From Candidatus Kapaibacterium sp. (GTDB lineage Bacteria; Bacteroidota; Ignavibacteria; Kapaibacteriales; UBA2268): 64,000 nucleotides of DNA. This document shows, piece by piece, positions 15,399 to 50,716 of the stretch. The DNA is taken from contig JAMLHE010000002.1 of NCBI GenBank assembly GCA_023957315.1, positions 263,750 to 327,749 on the forward strand. Reading direction: 5' to 3'. The notes under the pieces are model-generated. The model saw only the letters and a program-made list of their open reading frames with translations. It was not told where the DNA came from and did not search any database. Each line of letters starts with the position of its first letter. The first letter of the stretch is position 1. Both the position numbers and the translations under genes were made by a program.

Positions 15399-15609
15399 AC
15401 CGCATAGTATTCTGTAATAGAGAAAAAAAGCAAATACGTAAAACAAAATCCAAAAAAATGAAACATAAATATAGAAAAATGAAACATAAATCTAAAAACA
15501 TGAGACATGATTCAAAAGTACATAAACAAGATTCTAATATATGTGAAACATAAATCCAAAAAACGTAAAACATAAATCCAAAAAGTCTGAACCCAAAATA
15601 CTATGCGGC
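15399..15609. repeat. array of ~7 degenerate ~21-bp direct repeats (core GAAACATAAATCCAAAAA) bracketed by a 12-bp perfect inverted repeat
   Basis: Units cgtaaaacaaaatccaaaaaaa / tgaaacataaatatagaaaaa / tgaaacataaatctaaaaaca / tgagacatgattcaaaag / ... / tgtgaaacataaatccaaaaaac / gtaaaacataaatccaaaaag; flanks ccgcatagtatt (15402-15413) and aatactatgcgg (15596-15607). Confidence 0.7.
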
Positions 15610-15614
15610 GATTT

Positions 15615-16586
15615 TTAATTAGCTACTATAAGTCTAGTGCTGAAAGCCCTCGAATCCATAATCATTTGCAACACATAAACGCCGTTACTTAAACTCGATA
15701 CGTTAAAACTCACTTGTTTTGAGCCCGGAGCTGAATACTCATTTACTATTACAGCCTCCTCATAACCAACACATGAATAAACACGAATAACGATTTGAGA
15801 TATTGTTTCAACTTCATAAAAAATATTTGCAACCGAAGAAACAGGATTAGGGCTGACTCTCAGGTAAACCTTCTCTGTATCGTTTTCGATTTGCGAAAAT
15901 TTTTCGACCATCGCCAATTGCTCTGACGAGAATTGTGATTTGATTGCATCTTCAATCATCTCTCTGCAAAGTTTGAATTCACCTTTTGTGGCTACTAAAG
16001 CCTTATCGAAAGCAGTGCAATACAAATGTTTGAAGTCTTGGTCGTTGAGATTGAAAGCAAAGATATTATAAACACCAAATTTGCTTTCGTCGAATCCGTT
16101 TTTCATGAAGGATGCAAAGTCAATGTTCGCAAGATTGAATTCCGTTTTTGACTTCTCGAGCAGCTTTTCAAATTCATCAATGCTTTTGGTCTTGTAAAAA
16201 TCGGTAAAGTCAATTCGCGAAAAGTCAAAATGAACCCCGCTCTGCTGCGAATTCATTTCATAGAACTTATTATAAACGTCTTCGAGAAAAGTGTAGTCTT
16301 TGTCGTATAGCAGCTCGAATTCTATCTCTTCAAGTGTAATTGAAATTCCTTTATTGTTCGGGACGTAGTAGTCAAATTCGTAATGTTCGGTGTATAATTG
16401 TAGGAAATTTTGTTGGGACAAGTCAAAATCGAAAGTGATGAAACCAACGTTCAAATCAGTATTCATCTCATTCTGTGAAGAATTTAAGTTGATTTGTGGT
16501 CGCTCTTGGCTGTTTAGTGTCAATGTCAGAACTAAGCTAAGTGCTATTGCGATTATAGCTTTGGGTGCATACATAGAGATTTTCAT
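15615..16586 (-). CDS. secreted hypothetical protein with T9SS C-terminal sorting domain
   Basis: Signal peptide; C-terminus ...VYSCVGYEEAVIVNEYSAPGSKQVSFNVSSLSNGVYVLQMIMDSRAFSTRLIVAN matches T9SS type-A CTD pattern. Confidence 0.65.
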   Translation of the reverse strand: MKISMYAPKAIIAIALSLVLTLTLNSQERPQINLNSSQNEMNTDLNVGFITFDFDLSQQNFLQLYTEHYEFDYYVPNNKGISITLEEIEFELLYDKDYTFLEDVYNKFYEMNSQQSGVHFDFSRIDFTDFYKTKSIDEFEKLLEKSKTEFNLANIDFASFMKNGFDESKFGVYNIFAFNLNDQDFKHLYCTAFDKALVATKGEFKLCREMIEDAIKSQFSSEQLAMVEKFSQIENDTEKVYLRVSPNPVSSVANIFYEVETISQIVIRVYSCVGYEEAVIVNEYSAPGSKQVSFNVSSLSNGVYVLQMIMDSRAFSTRLIVAN

Positions 16587-19043: not shown

Positions 19044-19074
19044 GGGGTTGATGCAAATCAACCCCTTTTTTTTT
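19044..19074 (+). terminator. rho-independent terminator after ppiD-like gene
   Basis: ggggttgat-gcaa-atcaacccc hairpin followed by T9. Confidence 0.75.
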
Positions 19075-19155
19075 GTCAACTTATTTCAGGACAAGACATG
19101 GGGCTTCTTCGCGTTTTTTGCGTTTTCTTTTGTATGCTTCATTCTGCTCTCATTA

Positions 19156-19362
19156 TCAATTATCACTTAATTTTATCAATTTAATATCTCTTGGGACACC
19201 TAATTCCCTGCATTTGATAGCAAATTCTTCAAGATTCATTGGACCATGTACTTTATCAGTATGTATTTCCACAATCCAGTAATAGTAAAGTTTGCTTTGT
19301 CTTACTAAAGTTTTTTTAACATCAAATTTTAAAGGTTGATCTTCCCCCAGTTTTGTGTACAC
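19156..19362 (-). pseudogene. possible 3' remnant of IS-interrupted gene (GTG-initiated 68-aa ORF)
   Basis: Begins inside the IS terminal repeat; no independent start signal. Confidence 0.3.
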
Positions 19363-20591
19363 AAATATAAGAGATTATTTGTTACTAAAAAATTGTTGTT
19401 CAAATTCTAGCGGAGATAAATAATTCAAACTGGAATGCATCCTATGTCTGTTATAGAACACTTCAATATACTCGAATATCATCATCTCAGCTTCACTCCT
19501 TGTTTTAAATCGTGTTTGGTAAACTAATTCCATTTTTAATGTATGGAAAAATGTTTCTGTTATTGCATTGTCATAACAATTGCCTTTTCTACTCATACTT
19601 TGCGATATATGATTATTTTCAAGCAGATTGCGTACCTCGTTGCTTGCGTATTGCACACCTCTATCTGAGTGAAAAATCAATCCTTGCTTGGGCTTCCTTT
19701 CCGTGATTGACTTTTCTATCGCAGAATGTACAAACGCTTTGCTTAATCTTGTGTCAACTCGCCAGCTGATTATCTGTCTTGTAAATATGTCAATTACAAC
19801 GACTAGATAAAGCCAGCCTTCTCGTGTCCAGATATATGTTATATCCGATGCCCATACTTTATTTGGGCTTATTGTTGTAAAATTCTGTTTTAATTGATTC
19901 TCAGCCACCGGAAGACTATGATTTGAATTGGTAGTTGCTTTAAATTTTCGCTTTACGACTGATTTTAAAGATTGCTCTCGCATCAGTCTTGCAACCTTGT
20001 TCTTACCTATCATGATGCCTTTACGACGCAATGCCTGTGTTATTCTGGGCGACCCGTAAACTTGGCGGCTCTTTTCAAATATCTCCTTTATTTCTTTATT
20101 AATTAATTTGTCTGCATTCTTTCGATTGCTTGTTTTACCTTGCTTGTATTTATAGTACCCGCTCGTTGATACTCCTATTGCCCGGCATATTCTCAATACT
20201 GCATATTCTGAGCAGTGCTTTTCCACAAAGGAGTATTTATCTTCTATTCTTTTGAAAATATGCCGAGTGCTTTTTTTAATATGTCTCGCTCCTCTTTTAA
20301 AACCCGATTCTCTCGCTTAAGCCTTGTAAGCTCTGAATCTATAGGGCTTTGGTGTCCTTTACCGGGGAATGCACCTTCAGCATCTTTCAAATACCGTTGC
20401 TTCCAGAGATGCAAGGTATTTTCGTTTATACCAAGTTCTCTTGATAATTCCGATATTCGCTTTTGTTTGCTTAATATCAGTTTTACAGTATTTATTTTAA
20501 ATTCTTTGTCGTATGTTCTTTTTACTTTTTCCATTTTTGACCTCCGTTTTTCTCAAATCTAACTAGTTTTCATCTCTTTTCCTAATGTCCA
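19354..20591 (-). mobile_element. IS3-family insertion sequence (orfA 20244..20534, orfB 19375..20226, A7G slippery site)
   Basis: OrfA HTH transposase (IS3/IS911-like) and OrfB rve/DDE integrase core on the minus strand; AAAAAAAG slippery motif near orfA 3' end (plus-strand ctttttttaa ~20264-20273); imperfect ~21-bp terminal IRs starting TG (tgtacacaaatataagagatt at ~19356 vs revcomp tggacattaggaaaagagatg at 20571-20591, ~14/21 identical). Confidence 0.65.
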
Positions 20592-20885
20592 CTCTATTGG
20601 GGGAAGGTCAGGTCGGTATTCTTCACGTAGTTTATCTTTAATTTCATAAACAGGTTTTTGAATAGCTACAATAAAATCCGAGTTGTTTCCATATTTTACT
20701 ATATCTCCGTCTATTATGTTTCCTTTTTGGGTCTTATTTAATTTAGAATAACTGTTAGGATCGCTCATTATACCATAATCATTTCCAAATATTATAAATT
20801 GCTTGCTATCACAAGAATTTACAAGTTCATCACATGAAGCGATTAGTGTAACTAATAAAATAAAAAGCAAAAAATTTAAATTCAT
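20559..20885 (-). CDS. lipoprotein, 3' end replaced by IS3 terminal sequence (truncated)
   Basis: Signal peptide + lipobox LIASC; last ~11 codons are encoded by the IS left end. Confidence 0.45.
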   Translation of the reverse strand: MNLNFLLFILLVTLIASCDELVNSCDSKQFIIFGNDYGIMSDPNSYSKLNKTQKGNIIDGDIVKYGNNSDFIVAIQKPVYEIKDKLREEYRPDLPPIEWTLGKEMKTS

Positions 20886-21016
20886 AACTACTCCGTATTA
20901 TATACTTTCTTCGTCCCGTCAGGTGTTACACCTGACGGAACAAAATGTAATCATAAAAATCATATCAATCATACAATTCATAGTTCAGACCCATCTCTCA
21001 CTCTGTTTCCCCAAAT

Positions 21017-22297: not shown

Positions 22298-22881
22298 ATA
22301 AAATCCCGTAAAAATATGTTTGAATCCAACGTTTCTTTCAAATATAATGAATATTCTGAATTTAGACAGTTTCATGAACTCAAAATGCACTATATTTCAA
22401 AAAACAATCAGCTATCTATACACTATGACACATGAACAGCAAAAAAATCTCAGGGTGAGAAAAATATAAAAATCCCCCTGCTCGCAAGCTCGCTTTCCCC
22501 CTTTCAAAGGGGGATTAAGGGGGATTTGTATTTGGTTTTTGTCAACTTTTTTTAGGACTAAACAAAAAAAATCTAAATATTTTGTTCCTTTTTTGGGTTT
22601 GAAGTGTCATCATATATATAAAAAGTGTTTTTTTCTGTAAATTTGACAATTTCGATTGTCTATACATTTAGGGAGAATCTTTTCTCCGGAAAGTTTTTTC
22701 CGTCCCGTCTTTAACAAAACCGGAACATCTTAACCTCGAAGAGGTTACATGTTTATAGAAATGATGATTGATGTTCGGTTCGATGCGACCTCGTAGAGGT
22801 CGAATTTAAATAATTAACGTTTTGCTATAAACATATGACTCCTTCGGAGTCAAGAGGGATTCAAAGGAGCAGCTTTTTCAT

Positions 22882-22955
22882 CACCCACGGTTAAAACCGT
22901 GGGCTATGTTTGTCTTTCTCCCTCTCCTTCGGAGAATGTCGGGGTGAGGTTTCTT
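22882..22955. repeat. composite hairpin-module repeat (X: cccacggttaaaaccgtggg-ctatgtttgtc; Y: ctctccTTCGgaga..ggggtgaggtttctt), copy A
   Basis: Near-identical inverted copies of both modules at 40861..40939; Y also inside CDS at 36680..36727. Confidence 0.75.
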
Positions 22956-25483: not shown

Positions 25484-25558
25484 TCGGGGTGGAGGGATTC
25501 GAACCCCCGGCCCCCTGGTCCCAAACCAGGTGCGCTAACCGGACTGCGCTACACCCCG
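25484..25558 (-). tRNA. tRNA-Pro (anticodon TGG)
   Basis: Minus-strand read CGGGGTG-TA-GCGCAGTCCGGTTAGCGC-A-CCTGG-TTTGGGA-CCAGG-GGGCC-GGGGGTTCGAATCCCTC-CACCCCG-A: 7-bp acceptor stem, anticodon loop TT-TGG-GA, GTTCGAATC T-loop. Confidence 0.9.
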
Positions 25559-36400: not shown

Positions 36401-36590
36401 TTCCCGTAGGATCTTACAATAGACGAAACCTTCGGAAGGTTAGGAAAGCATGCCTTTTCATGTCCCGTCAGTTGTTATAATTTACGGATAGGGATAAATC
36501 TGTAGTATAGTCGTTAGTTGTAACAAAGATGATACACTAACTTTGGAATAACTGACGGTACAGTAATTAGACTTCCGAATTCTTCATTCG

Positions 36591-38207
36591 TCACAACTTC
36601 ACAAACATCCGCGTCCGGCTGCCGATACGGACGTAATACACACCACGAGAGAGATGCGAAATATCAACTCTCAAATTCCCGCTCCCTGAGCCTGTCGAAG
36701 GGTGAGCGGGCGGGGTGAGGTTTCTTACGCATTCACCAAGCGTATTGAAAATGTGAATTTCAGCACCTTCATCAACCCTACGGTTAACCGTAGGGTTGAT
36801 GGTGTGGGAACTGATTTCAATATATTCCGTTGCGGGATTGGGGTGGATTATCGTGCTGATTTGCACTGCTTCGTTGATGCTTGTGGGTTTCGTGCAGATG
36901 CTGCTTGTCCTGTGAATGTTGTTCTGGAACATTGTCCAGTCGGGACCTTGCCCGGTTCCTGCTGAAATTGCGTATGCTCTGCCGTAATTACTGTGCCAAT
37001 CGGGATATTCGACAAAGCCACCAATTATGAAAACATCGAGTATTCCGTCGCCGTCAAAATCCGCTACTACCGGGGCATGGTCTATCGAAAACTCTTTGCC
37101 GATATGGTCAGCAAGGTCAAGAGTCCAAATGACTGAAGCGTCAATGCCCCTAAGTGCGATTACTTGTCCGCCGGTAGTGCCGAAAATGACATCCGGCAAT
37201 CCGTCATTGTCTATATCTGATAGCGCTGCTCCACGAAATGATTGTTCGATATTGGGAATATCATATTCCCAAAGTACTGAGCCGTCGCCTTTTAGGGCAT
37301 AGTAGCGGTAAAAGCTCGAAAAGACTAATTCGCAATTTCCATCGCCGTCCAAATCGCCCACAACAACAGGCGAACCGATATATGAAATCGCCTTGAAACG
37401 CCATTTCAATGTGCCGTCTGCGGAATTGAGTGCAAAGAGATTGCCGGCATAATCGCCTATTACTAAATCATCTATTCCATCGCTGTCGAGGTCAACAACT
37501 GCGGTTCCGTGATAAACAACATCTTCCAAGTCGAATGTCCAGATTAATTGCTGGTCGTAGCCACGATAAGCATAAACTTTGCTTTGGTTGTCAGTTGTAT
37601 CAAAATTCCACGAGGCTACTACGAAATCTAATTTTCCGTCGCCGTCAAGGTCAACAATTGTCGGAGCAGTCTGAATCCATGAGTTAGTGTCCACTTTTAA
37701 GTCCCACTTTTTGATGCCATCGCTTGCGTTCATACATATTACATATCCACCGAATTGTCCGTGCAAAATTTCCAATTTTCCATCGCCATCAATATCTGCT
37801 ATTGTAGGCGGTGAATCGCTTCCACGTGTGAGAGTTTGCCATTTTACTGCTCCTGTTGCTCCGTCGAAACAATATGTGTAGGGATTGCACGAACTTGCGA
37901 CGATAACGTCGAGCAAGCCATCGCCGTCCACGTCGTAAATGAGTGGCGCCGTGTCGTTGCATCCCTCCTGCCAACCGGATGTATTGTACTTCCAGAGCAA
38001 TGTGCCATCGTCTAAATTGAGGGCATAAACCATGCTATCGTTGCGATAACAGCCGAAAACCACTTCGTATTTTCCGTCATGGTCAATGTCTGCGAGTGCG
38101 GACTGACCGTACGAATTATCGTTCAGGTCGTACCACCACTTAATTTCAGGTACTTGTGCAACACATTGGATTGCAACCAATGTAAAAATAAGAATCAAAG
38201 TTTTCAT
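36591..38207 (-). CDS. FG-GAP/VCBS beta-propeller repeat protein with T9SS C-terminal sorting domain
   Basis: Eight D-x-D-x-D-G-x-x-D repeats (DIDHDGKYEVVFG, VDGDGLLDVIV, DIDGDGKLEIL, DLDGDGKLDFVV ...); C-terminal IFNTLGECV...ISHLSRGVYYVRIGSRTRMFVKL. Confidence 0.75.
   Translation of the reverse strand: MKTLILIFTLVAIQCVAQVPEIKWWYDLNDNSYGQSALADIDHDGKYEVVFGCYRNDSMVYALNLDDGTLLWKYNTSGWQEGCNDTAPLIYDVDGDGLLDVIVASSCNPYTYCFDGATGAVKWQTLTRGSDSPPTIADIDGDGKLEILHGQFGGYVICMNASDGIKKWDLKVDTNSWIQTAPTIVDLDGDGKLDFVVASWNFDTTDNQSKVYAYRGYDQQLIWTFDLEDVVYHGTAVVDLDSDGIDDLVIGDYAGNLFALNSADGTLKWRFKAISYIGSPVVVGDLDGDGNCELVFSSFYRYYALKGDGSVLWEYDIPNIEQSFRGAALSDIDNDGLPDVIFGTTGGQVIALRGIDASVIWTLDLADHIGKEFSIDHAPVVADFDGDGILDVFIIGGFVEYPDWHSNYGRAYAISAGTGQGPDWTMFQNNIHRTSSICTKPTSINEAVQISTIIHPNPATEYIEISSHTINPTVNRRVDEGAEIHIFNTLGECVRNLTPPAHPSTGSGSGNLRVDISHLSRGVYYVRIGSRTRMFVKL
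36770..36801. repeat. perfect 32-bp palindrome inside the T9SS-CTD coding sequence (encodes INPTVNRRVD)
   Basis: catcaaccctacggttaaccgtagggttgatg; centre GTTAAC. Confidence 0.85.
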
Positions 38208-40860: not shown

Positions 40861-40939
40861 GACAAACATAGCCCACGAATTTTGATGGTGGGTTAAGAAG
40901 GAAACCTCACCCCAACCTCTCCGAAGGAGAGGGAGAAAG
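40861..40939. repeat. composite hairpin-module repeat, copy B (rcX-rcY)
   Basis: gacaaacatagcccac..ggtggg + ggaaacctcaccccaacctctccgaaggagagggagaaag = reverse complements of modules X and Y of copy A. Confidence 0.75.
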
Positions 40940-41063: not shown

Positions 41064-42749
41064 ATGTATTCGCCCCCCCCCCTCAAAGCCTCATGGCTAT
41101 TGACAATTGTATTATCCTTACTATACTTTACTAATGTAACTGTAATGATTGCACAGAACGAAAAAGAGCTGTTTCCTGAGCAATTGCTTAGTTCATGTTG
41201 CGAAGAAATCGATATTGACTACTATGTGACGGAAGATTGTTGTATTCAAATTGATATTGACAATCCAAGTTGTGAAGACGCGAAAATTTCAATTTTGTCA
41301 AAAGCACCAAATTCACCGTTGTGGAATTTAAGATATGTAGAATCCGCACCTGCTACAAGTGTCAGTTATAAACTCTGCCCGTCTAATTATTCTACCTCAA
41401 TGAGGTTTAGAATTATAATTCAACATGCAAATGGAGCACCGCATTGCGACACAAGCTTAATGGTTGAAGGAGTAAACCAATTTACTTATGATGTTGACAT
41501 CAGTCACTGTTGCAACTGTGAAGGTAGTAGTTCATGGATAACCTCATACAAAAGTTCAGATACACTTTGTCCGGACTCATGTTCTTTTGGAGTGTATTTA
41601 AATATACCGGATTCTATTACTTGCTTTAAATACTATGGTACATGGATTGCAGAGTCAGGCAATGCGGCAAAAGATATTGATTCAGTTTCTAATATTATTA
41701 AGTGTGTTGGACCAGGAGAAGAATCAAGCATACGAATTAGATTGCTAACAAGTATGGAAGAATATCATTCTGCTTCAGGTTGTTATTTGAGTGCACAAAT
41801 CTCTTGTGATACTACGACATACTTTTGGATGCCTGACATTGATTTAACTTGTTGGGATGATTGTGAAGAAGCGGAAGTAAGAAAAGATACTTTATCTGAT
41901 TTTCATGTGCCTGGATGCTTTAATTGCCCAGTCACTGTTTCTTATGTAACAAGAAAATGCAATGACAAGCAAGAGTTACAAATTACAGGCTTCTGGACTC
42001 ACAATACTTGGAATTGTAGAAATTGCCCGGACGAAATGCTTTACGATGCTGCTTTGAAAGAAATAATTTATAAAAATAAAATGGAATTTGAACCTACAGA
42101 AGTCAATGATTGTGATACGACTTGGCGTGTTGGAATAAGCAGTTGCTTTGGTACATACATATATACAAATTGGATAATGAAATGGGAAGAAGCAGGACCA
42201 TCCGGCCCCGGTGGTTGGGTTTCAGTACTCGATACAATAGTTGTCAGAGTTGTATGCGATACTATTGATTGTTGCTTTAAGCAACTAACTGTTTGTAGAT
42301 ATGATGACCATATTACGATTGCAGATGGAGCATCAAGCGACACAAATATCATCTGTTTACCACCTCTTCAATTCCCAATGCTTGAACCACCAGTATTTTG
42401 CGGACCTTCGTGTGATTGGCTTGATAGTTTGGAAGGTTACTACTACCCCCATCTGAGTAGTAAAGAATCTTATGGAGCGAAATTCTTCCTATACGAAGAA
42501 ATAAAGGTTAATTCTTATATACAGAATGGAAAATTTAATCTTGAAATTGAATCACCAAACTCCTCAGAAATAAAATTTACTGTATATGATTATTTAGGTA
42601 ATATTTTTATCCAAAGTCCTATAAGAATTCAAGCTGGCACAACAAGATATAACATTGATTTAACACCATTAAATACAGGAACATATATATATACGATAGT
42701 CTTTGATGAGAATCTGATAAAAACAGACAAGTTTATTTATATTAAATAA
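41064..42749 (+). CDS. novel cysteine-rich (~40 Cys) secreted protein with T9SS-like C-terminal domain; poly-C tract at codons 4-7
   Basis: Signal-peptide-like N-terminus; CC/CxxC-rich body (SSCCEEIDIDYYVTEDCCIQIDIDNPSCED, HCCNCEG...); C-terminus KFTVYDYLGNIF...TGTYIYTIVFDENLIKTDKFIYIK resembles T9SS CTD; AT-rich. Confidence 0.6.
   Translation: MYSPPPLKASWLLTIVLSLLYFTNVTVMIAQNEKELFPEQLLSSCCEEIDIDYYVTEDCCIQIDIDNPSCEDAKISILSKAPNSPLWNLRYVESAPATSVSYKLCPSNYSTSMRFRIIIQHANGAPHCDTSLMVEGVNQFTYDVDISHCCNCEGSSSWITSYKSSDTLCPDSCSFGVYLNIPDSITCFKYYGTWIAESGNAAKDIDSVSNIIKCVGPGEESSIRIRLLTSMEEYHSASGCYLSAQISCDTTTYFWMPDIDLTCWDDCEEAEVRKDTLSDFHVPGCFNCPVTVSYVTRKCNDKQELQITGFWTHNTWNCRNCPDEMLYDAALKEIIYKNKMEFEPTEVNDCDTTWRVGISSCFGTYIYTNWIMKWEEAGPSGPGGWVSVLDTIVVRVVCDTIDCCFKQLTVCRYDDHITIADGASSDTNIICLPPLQFPMLEPPVFCGPSCDWLDSLEGYYYPHLSSKESYGAKFFLYEEIKVNSYIQNGKFNLEIESPNSSEIKFTVYDYLGNIFIQSPIRIQAGTTRYNIDLTPLNTGTYIYTIVFDENLIKTDKFIYIK
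41073..41082 (+). repeat. C10 homopolymeric tract (candidate slipped-strand phase-variation switch)
   Basis: cgCCCCCCCCCCtc directly after two out-of-frame ATGs (41057 with AAGGAG SD at 41042-41047; 41064). Confidence 0.8.
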
Positions 42750-42810: not shown

Positions 42811-44238
42811 ATGATTTCGTATATTTTAAATATAATATGGCTTGTCCTAATATTGAATTCAATTTTGTATTCTCAAACCGAATGGGAGCAAGTGCATCCT
42901 TCTACTTATGGTACAGCTGCAAAATTTAATACTGTAAGATGTTTAGACAGTTTAAATTGTGTGTGTTTGGTATGGAATGGTACAGTATGTTGCGAAGGTG
43001 TTCTAAAATCCACAGATGGTGGCAAAACATGGAGTGAATTATATTACGAAAAAATTACATATGATGAAGAAGGTAATTTGATTTGGCCACAACCCAGATA
43101 CATGAATTCAGTTTCATATAAAACAGTAGAAAATATCCTAATTTCACGTAGCCATGGGATGATTTTCAGGAGTAAAAATGGCGGTGAATCCTTTGATACC
43201 GTTCGAGTTGTAGTACCAGTCGATGGAAAATATCCAAGCAGTTCAGAATTAAAAAATATCCACATGTTCAGTAATTCAAAAGGGGCTGTTGTATCAACAC
43301 CAAATATTTATATTACTAATGATTATTGGGACTCCTTTGAAATGATTGAAATATCACATCCCGATGTACCTGATGATTATATAATTAAAGCATTAGATAT
43401 TCATTTTTTTGATAAAGATAAATTTACAATTTATTTCTTTGCCAATAAAGAAATTTCACCTAATAATTTCCATTTTTTATTCAAAGGATTCCTGACAACT
43501 ACGGATAATGGCAAAACATGGCATATGCAAGATATTTTAAATGATTTTCAGGCAAGAAATGTTTACATTAATTCATTGTTTTCTCTAAATCCTATGATTG
43601 GATGGGCTGTCGGTTATGTTGTTTATGATACAGACAATGGGGGTAGATTAAGACACGGACTTGTTTATAAAACTTATAACGGAGGTTATACATGGGATTT
43701 AATTCATGTAGATGAAACTGAACCAAAATTTGGTTTATGGGACATTGCTTTTTATGATGAACTAAACGGAATAACAGTAGGTAAATACGGGAAGATTTTA
43801 CGTACAACAGACGGAGGTTATAAATGGTTCTCCGATGTTCAATTGAGTGCCGAACAAGAATCTTCTCGACTCACTCAGGAAATTACTTTTGCCGGGCAAA
43901 ATCCAATTGTATGTGCTTGGCAAGATGGTATTGTTCGTGGCACATACACACCATCTTCTGTAAAAGAAAGCGCAGAAGCAGGGAGCGGGCTGTCCGTCTT
44001 TCCCAATCCGGCAAGCGAATATATAGAAATAACCATAGCTATCAACCCTACGGTTAACCGTGGAGTTGATGAAATTGCTGACATCAAAATCTTCAATACT
44101 CTGGGTGAATGTGTTGAAGAAATCCCCCTTAATCCCCCTTTGCCAAAGAGGGAAACAAGAATTGATGTTTCGCATCTTCCTCGTGGTGTGTATTATGTTC
44201 GTATTGGCAGCCGGACGCAGATGTTTGTGAAGATGTGA
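42811..44238 (+). CDS. BNR/Asp-box repeat (Ycf48/sortilin-like beta-propeller) protein with T9SS C-terminal sorting domain
   Basis: Asp-box repeats STDGGKTW, SKNGGESF, TTDNGKTW, KTYNGGYTW, RTTDGGYKW; C-terminal VFPNPASEYIEI...IFNTLGECV...VSHLPRGVYYVRIGSRTQMFVKM. Confidence 0.7.
   Translation: MISYILNIIWLVLILNSILYSQTEWEQVHPSTYGTAAKFNTVRCLDSLNCVCLVWNGTVCCEGVLKSTDGGKTWSELYYEKITYDEEGNLIWPQPRYMNSVSYKTVENILISRSHGMIFRSKNGGESFDTVRVVVPVDGKYPSSSELKNIHMFSNSKGAVVSTPNIYITNDYWDSFEMIEISHPDVPDDYIIKALDIHFFDKDKFTIYFFANKEISPNNFHFLFKGFLTTTDNGKTWHMQDILNDFQARNVYINSLFSLNPMIGWAVGYVVYDTDNGGRLRHGLVYKTYNGGYTWDLIHVDETEPKFGLWDIAFYDELNGITVGKYGKILRTTDGGYKWFSDVQLSAEQESSRLTQEITFAGQNPIVCAWQDGIVRGTYTPSSVKESAEAGSGLSVFPNPASEYIEITIAINPTVNRGVDEIADIKIFNTLGECVEEIPLNPPLPKRETRIDVSHLPRGVYYVRIGSRTQMFVKM
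44041..44070. repeat. imperfect copy of the 30-bp palindrome inside paralogous CTD coding sequence (encodes INPTVNRGVD)
   Basis: atcaaccctacggttaaccgtggagttgat. Confidence 0.8.
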
Positions 44239-50497: not shown

Positions 50498-50598
50498 GGG
50501 CTGTCCTTGCGGCAACGCGTTTCCCTCCGCCGGTATTACCCGGATCAGGTTCAAGGAGACTCTCTCAGCCATACCTATTTTGGTATAGCACCTCCAAC
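50498..50598 (-). promoter_or_regulatory. TPP (THI-box) riboswitch
   Basis: Minus-strand RNA ..GGUGCUAUACC..GCUGAGAG..CCUUGAACCUGAUCCGGGUAAUACCGGCGGAGGGAAACG.. matches TPP aptamer consensus (GGUGC / CUGAGA / ACCUGAUCyGGnUAAUrCCrGCGnAGGGA). Confidence 0.85.
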
Positions 50599-50716
50599 GG
50601 TCTTTAATTCTTTTGCCCAAACGAAGCAAAAATGAATTTATTGTTAATATCGAATTCTAACTCAAACTACGCAAATGTCGCATTGTACGTTAATAATAAT
50701 TTACAAATAGCAAATA

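Follow-up and report, generated by a model that had tools for sequence, protein, structure and literature searches.

Hairpin-forming repeat modules in two loops of a type IX secretion sorting domain from Candidatus Kapaibacterium and related lineages

In a 64,000-nucleotide stretch of the Candidatus Kapaibacterium sp. genome (GenBank assembly GCA_023957315.1, contig JAMLHE010000002.1, positions 263,750 to 327,749; hereafter the window), two type IX secretion system (T9SS) cargo genes, an FG-GAP gene and a BNR gene, end in a C-terminal sorting domain (CTD) of the same subfamily. Two loops of this domain, between strands 2 and 3 (s2-s3, loop 1) and between strands 4 and 5 (s4-s5, loop 2), are encoded in frame by short hairpin-forming DNA modules. 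An earlier sequence-only reading of the window had noticed these modules and likened them to three intergenic hairpin repeats, named X, Y and Z. Here, the modules are described in the window and in related genomes and metagenomes, and the processes that may have placed them in a protein export signal are weighed.

Sorting domains and hairpin modules of the window

The two genes and the modules within them are located as follows in the window.

36591-38207, minus strand: FG-GAP/beta-propeller cargo gene, 538 amino acids (open reading frame, ORF; Pfam FG-GAP_3, 3.4e-30; Por_Secre_tail, 8.7e-10; TIGR04183)
36594-36869, minus strand: T9SS type-A CTD of the FG-GAP gene, its last 92 amino acids (AlphaFold2, Foldseek)
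36770-36801: module A, a perfect 32-nt palindrome, in loop 1 of the FG-GAP CTD (palindrome scan, minimum free energy, AlphaFold2)
36680-36726, minus strand: module d (Y-like), in loop 2 of the FG-GAP CTD, in-frame peptide LTPPAHPSTGSGSG
42811-44238, plus strand: BNR/Ycf48-like cargo gene, 475 amino acids, with a CTD of the same subfamily as the FG-GAP gene (ORF, Pfam, NCBIfam)
43981-44235, plus strand: T9SS sorting domain of the BNR gene (Por_Secre_tail, 9e-11, residues 396-473)
44041-44070: degraded copy of module A in the BNR gene, encoding INPTVNRGVD, with two mismatches (one T.G and one C.A)
44120-44154, plus strand: copy of module Z in loop 2 of the BNR CTD, in-frame peptide (E)IPLNPPLPKRE

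The FG-GAP protein begins with a signal-like peptide and ends in the sorting domain. Judged by the family models, both domains are bona fide T9SS type-A sorting domains: the FG-GAP and BNR proteins score 39.2 and 42.4 bits with PF18962 (cutoff 27) and 25.6 and 30.7 with TIGR04183 (cutoff 23), and the matches stop 2-5 residues before the stop codon. In addition, the BNR domain matches a profile built from the CTD family with E=1.5e-27. The two genes had been taken for paralogues; however, their cargo parts are unrelated and homology is confined to the CTDs, so they are not. The 85-90% DNA identity once estimated for their 3' ends applies to the frameworks alone (89% in the terminal framework), and the mean column identity falls to 82% when the 3' ends of about 250-310 nt are compared with the loops included.

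Two further CTDs in the window provide internal controls.

15645-15914, minus strand: canonical T9SS CTD without hairpin modules, of a different subfamily (CTD-family profile search)
42537-42740, plus strand: canonical T9SS CTD without hairpin modules, in the gene at 41064-42749 (Pfam, NCBIfam, CTD-family profile)

Half of the window's four CTD genes thus lack hairpins, which shows that a T9SS tag can do without them in this organism. The comparison also shows the loops of the FG-GAP and BNR domains to be longer than the family model, a point that the sequence-only reading had proposed to check. The 81 and 78 residues of the two CTDs span 68 and 70 PF18962 positions, and both CTDs exceed the family models by 8-17 residues, whereas in a module-free CTD of the window 70 residues span 67 positions. 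Downstream of the module-free CTD gene at 15615-16586, the 24-nt direct repeat AAAAATGAAACATAAATCTAAAAA occurs in four copies (15454-15584).

Module A of the FG-GAP gene, with the 30-nt core ATCAACCCTACGGTTAACCGTAGGGTTGAT and the peptide INPTVNRRVD, forms a 16-bp stem and is the longest short-loop hairpin of the window. The minimum free energy of this loop is -32.3 kcal/mol, against -9.5 +/- 3.1 for synonymous recodings (each loop was recoded 100 times with the window's codon usage). The perfect palindrome and its degraded counterpart in the BNR gene, encoding INPTVNR(R/G)VD, stand as first described. Module d consists of an interrupted hairpin, CGCTCCCTGAGCCTGTCGAAGGGTGAGCG, at 36680-36708, followed by a tail at 36709-36726. 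The second loop of the BNR domain carries a partly decayed hairpin, and its weak stability (-7.9 kcal/mol against -4.3 +/- 2.7 for recodings) is consistent with this decay; an intact-looking relative, GEIPLSPPLPKGETR, occupies the same loop position in the metagenomic CTD P0174.

The intergenic modules with which these loops had been compared lie elsewhere in the window.

22470-22527, minus strand: module Z cluster (aaatccccct...ttccccctttcaaagggggattaagggggattt)
22884-22903, plus strand: module X, a hairpin
22916-22955, plus strand: module Y, hairpin tctccctctccttcggaga followed by tail cggggtgaggtttctt
40901-40935, plus strand: module Y in the orientation of the CTD loop-2 coding strand, gaaacctcaccccaacctctccgaaggagagggag

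The proposal that all three intergenic modules form part of the CTD code is borne out for Z and in part for Y. The BNR loop 2 has 23 exact nucleotides in common with 22505-22527 on the reverse strand. In the FG-GAP loop 2, 16 nt of the tail, CGGGGTGAGGTTTCTT, are identical to 22940-22955, and there is a further match of 13 nt to 40901-40913 on the opposite strand, but the hairpin part differs from the intergenic Y copy. The sequence type of 40901-40935 itself encodes NLTPTLSEGEGVR as loop 2 of the metagenomic CTDs P0114, P0126 and P0141. The likeness between the loop-1 palindrome and module X does not hold, as the two have only the stretch ACGGTTAA/AACCGT in common and do not cross-match at up to three mismatches. 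For the module pattern searches of the window, 0.00-0.03 chance matches are expected in shuffled sequence. No module was matched in an Rfam scan of the window, whose only matches were a tRNA (25484-25558) and a thiamine pyrophosphate (TPP) riboswitch (50505-50605), both on the minus strand. A role as intrinsic terminators was rejected, since no hairpin is followed by a T-run and a terminator scan of the window did not call the CTD hairpins.

An AlphaFold2 model of the FG-GAP CTD, built from a 69-sequence alignment, has a mean predicted local distance difference test (pLDDT) score of 81.6 and folds as a seven-strand beta-sandwich (strands at residues 4-9, 16-23, 38-41, 47-51, 64-69, 76-82 and 85-91). 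Module A corresponds to residues 24-37, between strands 2 and 3, with pLDDT of 62-72; module d corresponds to residues 52-63, between strands 4 and 5, with pLDDT below 50 at residues 56-62. Foldseek retrieved Ig-like sandwiches, including the T9SS substrate CTD 8glk_D (TM score of 0.69 on the target), at E-values of about 1e-2, which are weak, as expected for a small Ig fold. In the model, the module peptides thus form disordered loops while the rest of the beta-sandwich is intact, in agreement with the idea of a permissive CTD loop put forward in the sequence-only reading and here extended to both loops. In the solved CTD of RgpB, the loops are short and the secretion signal lies in the last two strands (PMC4804311).

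Alternative modules in the wider subfamily

A CTD-alignment scan of species-representative genomes yielded 36 loci, mostly from two metagenome-assembled genomes (MAGs): HGW-Ignavibacteriae-1 and one labelled Desulfobulbaceae (CROMO_A_116) that carries the same genes. These loci were translated together with seven further CTDs from their flanks. The contigs of 'Desulfobulbaceae bacterium CROMO_A_116' (JAGXRP01; L004, L006, L010 and others) contain the same CTD subfamily and the same small repeats as the Ignavibacteriae MAG, and also orthologues of window genes; the Desulfobulbaceae label is probably wrong. The consensus of the subfamily, here called NTLGECV after its central motif, is '...PNPA.EYI.I [loop 1].I.IFNTLGECV [loop 2] RIDISHLPRGVYY.RIG..TQMFVK'. 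In the two MAGs and in metagenomes, both loops are almost always hairpin modules, of at least five kinds at loop 1 and at least eight at loop 2, and at least 13 unrelated peptides occur across the two positions. The lettered types are listed below.

Loop 1, type A: ATCAACCCTACGGTTAACCGTAGGGTTGAT
Loop 1, type B: AACCTTCCGAAGGTTTCGAACCTTCGGAAGGTT
Loop 1, type C: AACAAGGGGTTGCAACCCCTTGTT
Loop 2, type a: GTAGAGACACGGCATGCCGTGTCTCTAC
Loop 2, type b: GTAGAGACAATTCATGAATTGTCTCTAC
Loop 2, type c: AGATGTCCAACATCTTGGAGATGTTGGACATCT
Loop 2, type d: HPSTGSGS module of the window's FG-GAP gene
Loop 2, type e: ATTCATCCGATGACTCCCAGTCATCGGATGAAT

Loop 1 holds several types besides A, B and C, and loop 2 also takes Y- and Z-type modules. 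Nearly all possible pairings of the two loops are seen (among them A+a, A+b, A+c, A+d, B+a, B+c, B+d, B+e and C+c). Module d, for example, recurs in the same frame at L001, L007, L005d, L017, P0001, P0002, P0016 and P0165. Two protein searches added about 230 CTDs, mostly of this subfamily, whose named sources are Kapabacteria or the Bacteroidetes/Chlorobi group; they contain further peptide classes at both loops, although the tally of these classes rests on loose regular expressions and is a rough guide only. At the DNA level, hairpins of yet other sequences were confirmed in three of these CTDs (L037-L039). In one of these, L037 (6-461; P0007), a GTAG-type loop-2 hairpin holds three tandem 30-nt copies between its arms, AATTCCCAAA(T/G)GGCACAGCAAGCTATGCCC, which translate as NSQ(M/R)AQQAMP three times over. 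An assembly chimera was rejected as the source of this architecture, which is found again in MAGs and metagenomes that are independent of one another (NCBI, JGI, ENA).

The palindromy of these loops is a property of the DNA and exceeds by far what the encoded peptides require. Stems of at least 10 bp are present in 23 of 30 loop-1 and 25 of 34 loop-2 segments. Relative to their synonymous recodings, loop-1 segments have a median z-score of stability of -3.9 and loop-2 segments one of -3.4, while framework segments lie near 0; 22 of 30 loop-1 and 18 of 34 loop-2 segments are more stable than all 100 recodings. The hairpin units measure 24-33 nt, with at least 60 instances across the 314 kb of DNA examined. 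Types a and b and the intergenic 28-29-mers bear a GTAG/CTAC tag, which A, B, C, c, e, d and Z do not have. Among ten 28-nt GTAG...CTAC variants from CTDs and intergenic DNA, pairing is kept in 97.5% of cells and compensatory changes occur at 7 of 12 pairs; as the intergenic members were chosen as palindromes, this covariation is partly circular and counts as partial evidence only. On the coding strand, stem mismatches comprise 14 G.T against 5 A.C in the raw count, and about 7-9 against 5 as independent events, which is not significant.

Turnover at fixed sites and copies in non-coding DNA

When the FG-GAP gene of the window is compared with its orthologues from the two MAGs, identity is about 88% as far as the CTD, within which these genes carry A+d, B+c and C+c. 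The framework between the loops is conserved and the boundaries of the exchanged modules are sharp, to within about 10 nt. Orthologues of the BNR gene show the same exchange of modules. Between genes with the same module, across copies and species, the module cores are 91-100% identical (100% in 12 copies of type c from both MAGs, which are of species level), whereas the adjacent framework segments F1, F2 and F3 of the same genes are only 67-84% identical. As 62% of the framework differences fall at third codon positions and 60% are synonymous, the CTDs have been under protein-level selection while their silent sites drifted; the third codon positions inside the modules, on the other hand, are invariant. 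Genes that share a module are no more alike than others in the sequence on either side of loop 1 (delta about 0); around loop 2 they are slightly more alike, by +0.14 in the first 15 nt and about +0.04 beyond. Nearest neighbours of F1, F2 and F3 were also used to separate module-only swaps from swaps of the whole CTD; they reflect neither the orthology of the genes nor the type of module, a probable effect of saturated synonymous sites, and the test was set aside as uninformative.

Every copy of a module type has the same frame and the same position. No direct repeats or target-site duplications flank any of the 56 aligned instances, and no empty, module-free site was found within the NTLGECV subfamily. 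Together, these observations exclude simple scattered insertion. The mini-element insertion suggested by the sequence-only reading thus lacks an insertion signature, and its description of the elements as domesticated is likewise not supported. The pattern is one of cassette replacement at two fixed sites. Some modules decay in place: about 20-25% of loops are decayed or weak, with degraded copies in the window BNR gene, L016, L020 and L027. At L013 (3040-3060), module A lacks its central 12 nt (ATCAACC|GTAGGGTTGAT) between two AACC repeats and remains in frame as INRRVD.

Whole sorting domains also move. In L012 (2950-3237) and L005 (4670-4959), a linker+CTD block is about 90% identical while the cargo parts are about 60% identical, from which it follows that whole tags pass between cargo genes; the two copies have different modules at both loops (A+a and B+d). 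The common block begins about 100 nt upstream of the CTD ('GSLWKLKLPWG.SSVEDFKGDDDNI'). The shuffling of CTDs between cargo genes that had been proposed for the window thus finds some support, but the clearest 5' breakpoint is not at a hairpin. Just downstream of intact CTD stops, L015 (3244-3340) and L019 (3265-3400) contain degenerate or duplicated CTD tails ('...IDIPNFPRDLYYV...', 'YVRIGSRTKMFVKI*'), which look as though an older tail had been displaced by a newer one. Orphan 3' CTD fragments that start inside hairpins were found at L026, L032 and L034, and the short-CTD loci examined (L026, L030, L034) are orphan 3' fragments behind terminators or other repeats. Several public calls of 53-62 amino acids named 'T9SS sorting domain-containing proteins' (P0001, P0002, P0016, P0029) begin just after the loop-1 hairpin, and are therefore probably fragments or broken calls.

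The same module sequences occur outside coding DNA. A metagenome scan for the exact 30-nt module A returned nine sites, five in CTDs and four intergenic (L042-L045). The intergenic contigs have 37-39% G+C, one of the sites lies between convergent genes, and the 30-nt unit, here in non-coding contexts with stop codons around it, is identical in all. In the MAGs, B-like, GTAG-type, d-like and split e-type hairpins lie downstream of CTD stops, and the hairpins that L039 and L037 carry in loop 1 have intergenic counterparts in L010 and L014. The loop-coding DNA is accordingly of the same hairpin repeat type as that of intergenic regions, as first supposed, with unrelated peptides at both sites and intergenic twins. 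Structural constraint had been expected to appear as palindrome and linker peptides conserved across the CTD family, with modules absent elsewhere; what is found instead is many peptides and copies in non-coding DNA.

The DNA right after CTD stops (window 36480-36590; L006, L007, L012, L024) is a mosaic of small repeats. [quoted passage not shown] In intergenic DNA of L002 (3370-3465), the arms of an e-type hairpin (ATTCATCCGATGACTCCC ... AAGTCATCGGATGAAT) stand about 60 nt of unrelated sequence apart, an arrangement that resembles a small element bounded by hairpin arms. The only mobile element in the window, within 19044-20938, is of the IS3 family, with a transposase (rve + HTH_21) in the ORF at 19375-20226 and a possible orfA at 20215-20885. 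Perfect hairpins flank it at 19044-19065 (GGGGTTGATGCAAATCAACCCC) and 20916-20938 (CCGTCAGGTGTTACACCTGACGG). Some IS3-family elements target hairpins of repetitive extragenic palindromic (REP) sequences.

Explanations and comparison with known systems

The reading preferred here, to which about an even chance of being correct is given, is that REP-like, selfish-looking hairpin repeats reside in two permissive loops of the T9SS tag and turn over as in-frame cassettes. On this account, REP-like palindromes of 24-33 nt would occupy, in frame, two loops (s2-s3 and s4-s5) of a lineage-specific type-A CTD subfamily. They would be selfish or neutral repeats, tolerated in these loops because the CTD is an export tag that would be cleaved off by PorU and discarded, with its recognition signal in the last two strands. 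Their turnover may proceed through a hairpin-directed replacement process, for which there are two candidates: a sequence-specific single-strand DNA enzyme of the kind known from REP sequences and REP-associated tyrosine transposases (RAYT; IS200/IS605-like), or copy-choice or short-patch conversion from one to another of the many CTD paralogues, set off when a hairpin stalls replication. The identity of modules across species, their sharp boundaries and their non-coding copies point to such a process and speak against plain long-tract gene conversion. Several observations weigh against this reading. The subfamily yielded neither target-site duplications nor empty sites, and its modules keep a fixed frame and place, which is not what free transposition would lead one to expect. 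Types A and c occur only inside CTDs in the 266 kb sampled around CTDs, and the intergenic copies of A were found in another metagenome; among the types, only a and b bear the GTAG/CTAC tag that marks classical REPs. A Y1/HUH transposase was not detected with phmmer below E=0.3 in 314 kb (830 ORFs), a weak probe that used an IS200 TnpA query, nor by a Pfam scan of 20 small window ORFs. Furthermore, perfect module identity between species about 12% diverged could equally mean functional constraint on the exact sequence. A more far-reaching version, which is rather unlikely, would make the CTD loops dedicated landing pads of hairpin-directed in-frame cassette replacement, by a single-strand DNA enzyme or hairpin-stalled copy choice, that keeps at least 13 hairpin families letter-perfect across species, with the hairpins possibly doubling as shared mRNA elements of T9SS cargo. 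If true, it would represent a natural mechanism for swapping stem-loop for stem-loop inside coding sequence.

The rival explanations differ in what they take to be the object of selection or exchange. The hairpins may instead be selected stem-loops of the mRNA or DNA near the 3' end of T9SS cargo genes, serving in mRNA protection, ribosome pausing or co-regulation, such that any stable hairpin is acceptable. Hairpin potential is indeed what the unrelated sequences at both sites conserve, all members of the subfamily are occupied, modules remain identical across species while synonymous sites drift, and the compensatory changes of the 28-nt GTAG set, partly circular as they are, point the same way. 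The lean of stem mismatches to G.T on the coding strand also fits, but shrinks when shared variants are counted once. Selection for structure predicts drift with compensation within a type, whereas copies of a type are identical; it also has to account for the decayed or weak loops, for the two window CTD genes without hairpins and for the same sequences in non-coding DNA far from any CTD, and the hairpins have neither a T-run nor an Rfam match. An explanation of this kind appears unlikely, if a serious one. The probability is very low that the loop peptides (INPTVNRRVD, HPSTGSGS and others) are functional export-signal motifs with incidental palindromy, and the data already speak against such constraint on the protein. 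Each module type does give one recurrent peptide in one frame, but at least 13 unrelated peptides share the two positions, the hairpins vanish on synonymous recoding, pLDDT is low in the loops, third codon positions are invariant in modules and variable in frameworks, and the same DNA lies in non-coding contexts amid stop codons.

Two further alternatives invoke recombination. Homologous gene conversion of the ordinary kind between the CTD paralogues, of which there are about 40 or more, would involve no mobile element and make the modules old alternative alleles that travel with the CTD. It accords with the shared frame and position of every copy, with the confinement of types A and c to CTDs in the sampled genomes and with conserved frameworks as homology arms. 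Conversion tracts should, however, drag flanking polymorphisms with them, and such linkage is absent at loop 1 and minimal at loop 2. RecA-type exchange needs roughly 25 nt of perfect identity, which frameworks at 67-84% identity rarely supply. As this explanation also leaves the exact intergenic copies of module A and the near-perfect conservation of modules across species unaccounted for, it is held to be improbable. Similarly improbable, and perhaps a little more so, is that the hairpins are recombination sites, attC-like or hotspots, of CTD shuffling that exchanges 3' segments or whole tags, with module variety as a by-product. The orphan fragments that begin inside hairpins, the duplicated tails behind intact stops at L015 and L019, the weak link between loop-2 type and the downstream F3 segment, the linker+CTD block transferred between the distantly related cargo genes of L012 and L005d and the lack of an orthology signal in the frameworks all suggest exchange of this sort, although saturated synonymous sites also give a missing orthology signal. 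Yet the clearest transfer has its 5' breakpoint about 100 nt upstream of the CTD, these loci have no associated integrase or recombinase, and loop-1 modules change while both flanks stay, which indicates replacement of the module and not exchange of segments at the hairpin.

The findings, and the preferred reading of repeats turning over as cassettes in permissive loops, bear on several questions. They show that hairpin repeats mostly regarded as extragenic can be built regularly into a conserved export signal, and the case is unusually systematic, with hundreds of examples of hairpin-loop CTDs in public metagenomes. The two loops represent naturally permissive insertion sites in a T9SS sorting domain that may be of use when tags or epitopes are engineered. 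Because its flanks are conserved and its inserts many, the subfamily is also a clean natural system for studying the movement and identity of short palindromic repeats, an open question for REP-like elements. The public records of 'T9SS sorting domain proteins' of 53-62 amino acids serve as a warning for annotation.

Among known systems, the Rickettsia palindromic elements (RPE) are palindromic repeats found between genes and in frame in coding genes, where they are translated as surface segments compatible with the fold (PMC10969869). The CTD modules resemble them in being both intergenic and translated in frame. Their size and distribution do not fit, however, as RPE measure about 100-150 bp and lie dispersed, at different sites, in many unrelated genes, whereas the CTD modules are 24-33 nt long, belong to two fixed loops of one domain family and comprise at least 13 mutually replacing families with no unoccupied site seen. 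REP sequences and bacterial interspersed mosaic elements (BIME) come closer in size and repetition: like the CTD modules, they are imperfect, repeated stem-loops of 20-40 nt, with several families per genome, located just downstream of ORFs and free of target duplications, and types a and b have GTAG...CTAC ends. Types A, B, C, c and e, in contrast, are without the GTAG/CGTC tag, and no RAYT was found in the 314 kb examined. Intragenic REPs have been reported (Di Nocera et al., 2013; PMC3733652), mostly at varied sites in replication and repair genes and not in recurrent loops of a secretion tag.

MITEs, such as the QMITE of Coxiella, the MITEs of Anabaena and the enterobacterial repetitive intergenic consensus (ERIC), are likewise small and non-autonomous, and can be read through to give in-frame fusions with an ORF. 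They consist of terminal inverted repeats around an internal segment with target-site duplications, while the CTD unit is a bare hairpin, with no direct repeats at the 56 aligned instances. The attC sites of integrons are imperfect palindromes that fold as single-strand hairpins and allow cassettes to be exchanged irrespective of sequence. The analogy is functional only, as attC sites are 57-141 nt long, non-coding and dependent on IntI, none of which was seen for the CTD modules. At the protein level, the domains agree with the T9SS type-A CTD (TIGR04183/PF18962; RgpB) in their match above curated thresholds, seven-strand sandwich and C-terminal position; they differ in that the s2-s3 and s4-s5 connections of RgpB are short, whereas the loops of the subfamily are longer and encoded by palindromic repeat DNA. 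Literature searches returned nothing that links palindromes to T9SS sorting domains. Palindromic repeats in frame are thus already known from RPE and intragenic REPs, and what sets this case apart is the size of the unit, its restriction to the same two loops in a single domain family, how many alternative families of hairpins there are and their replacement between orthologues.

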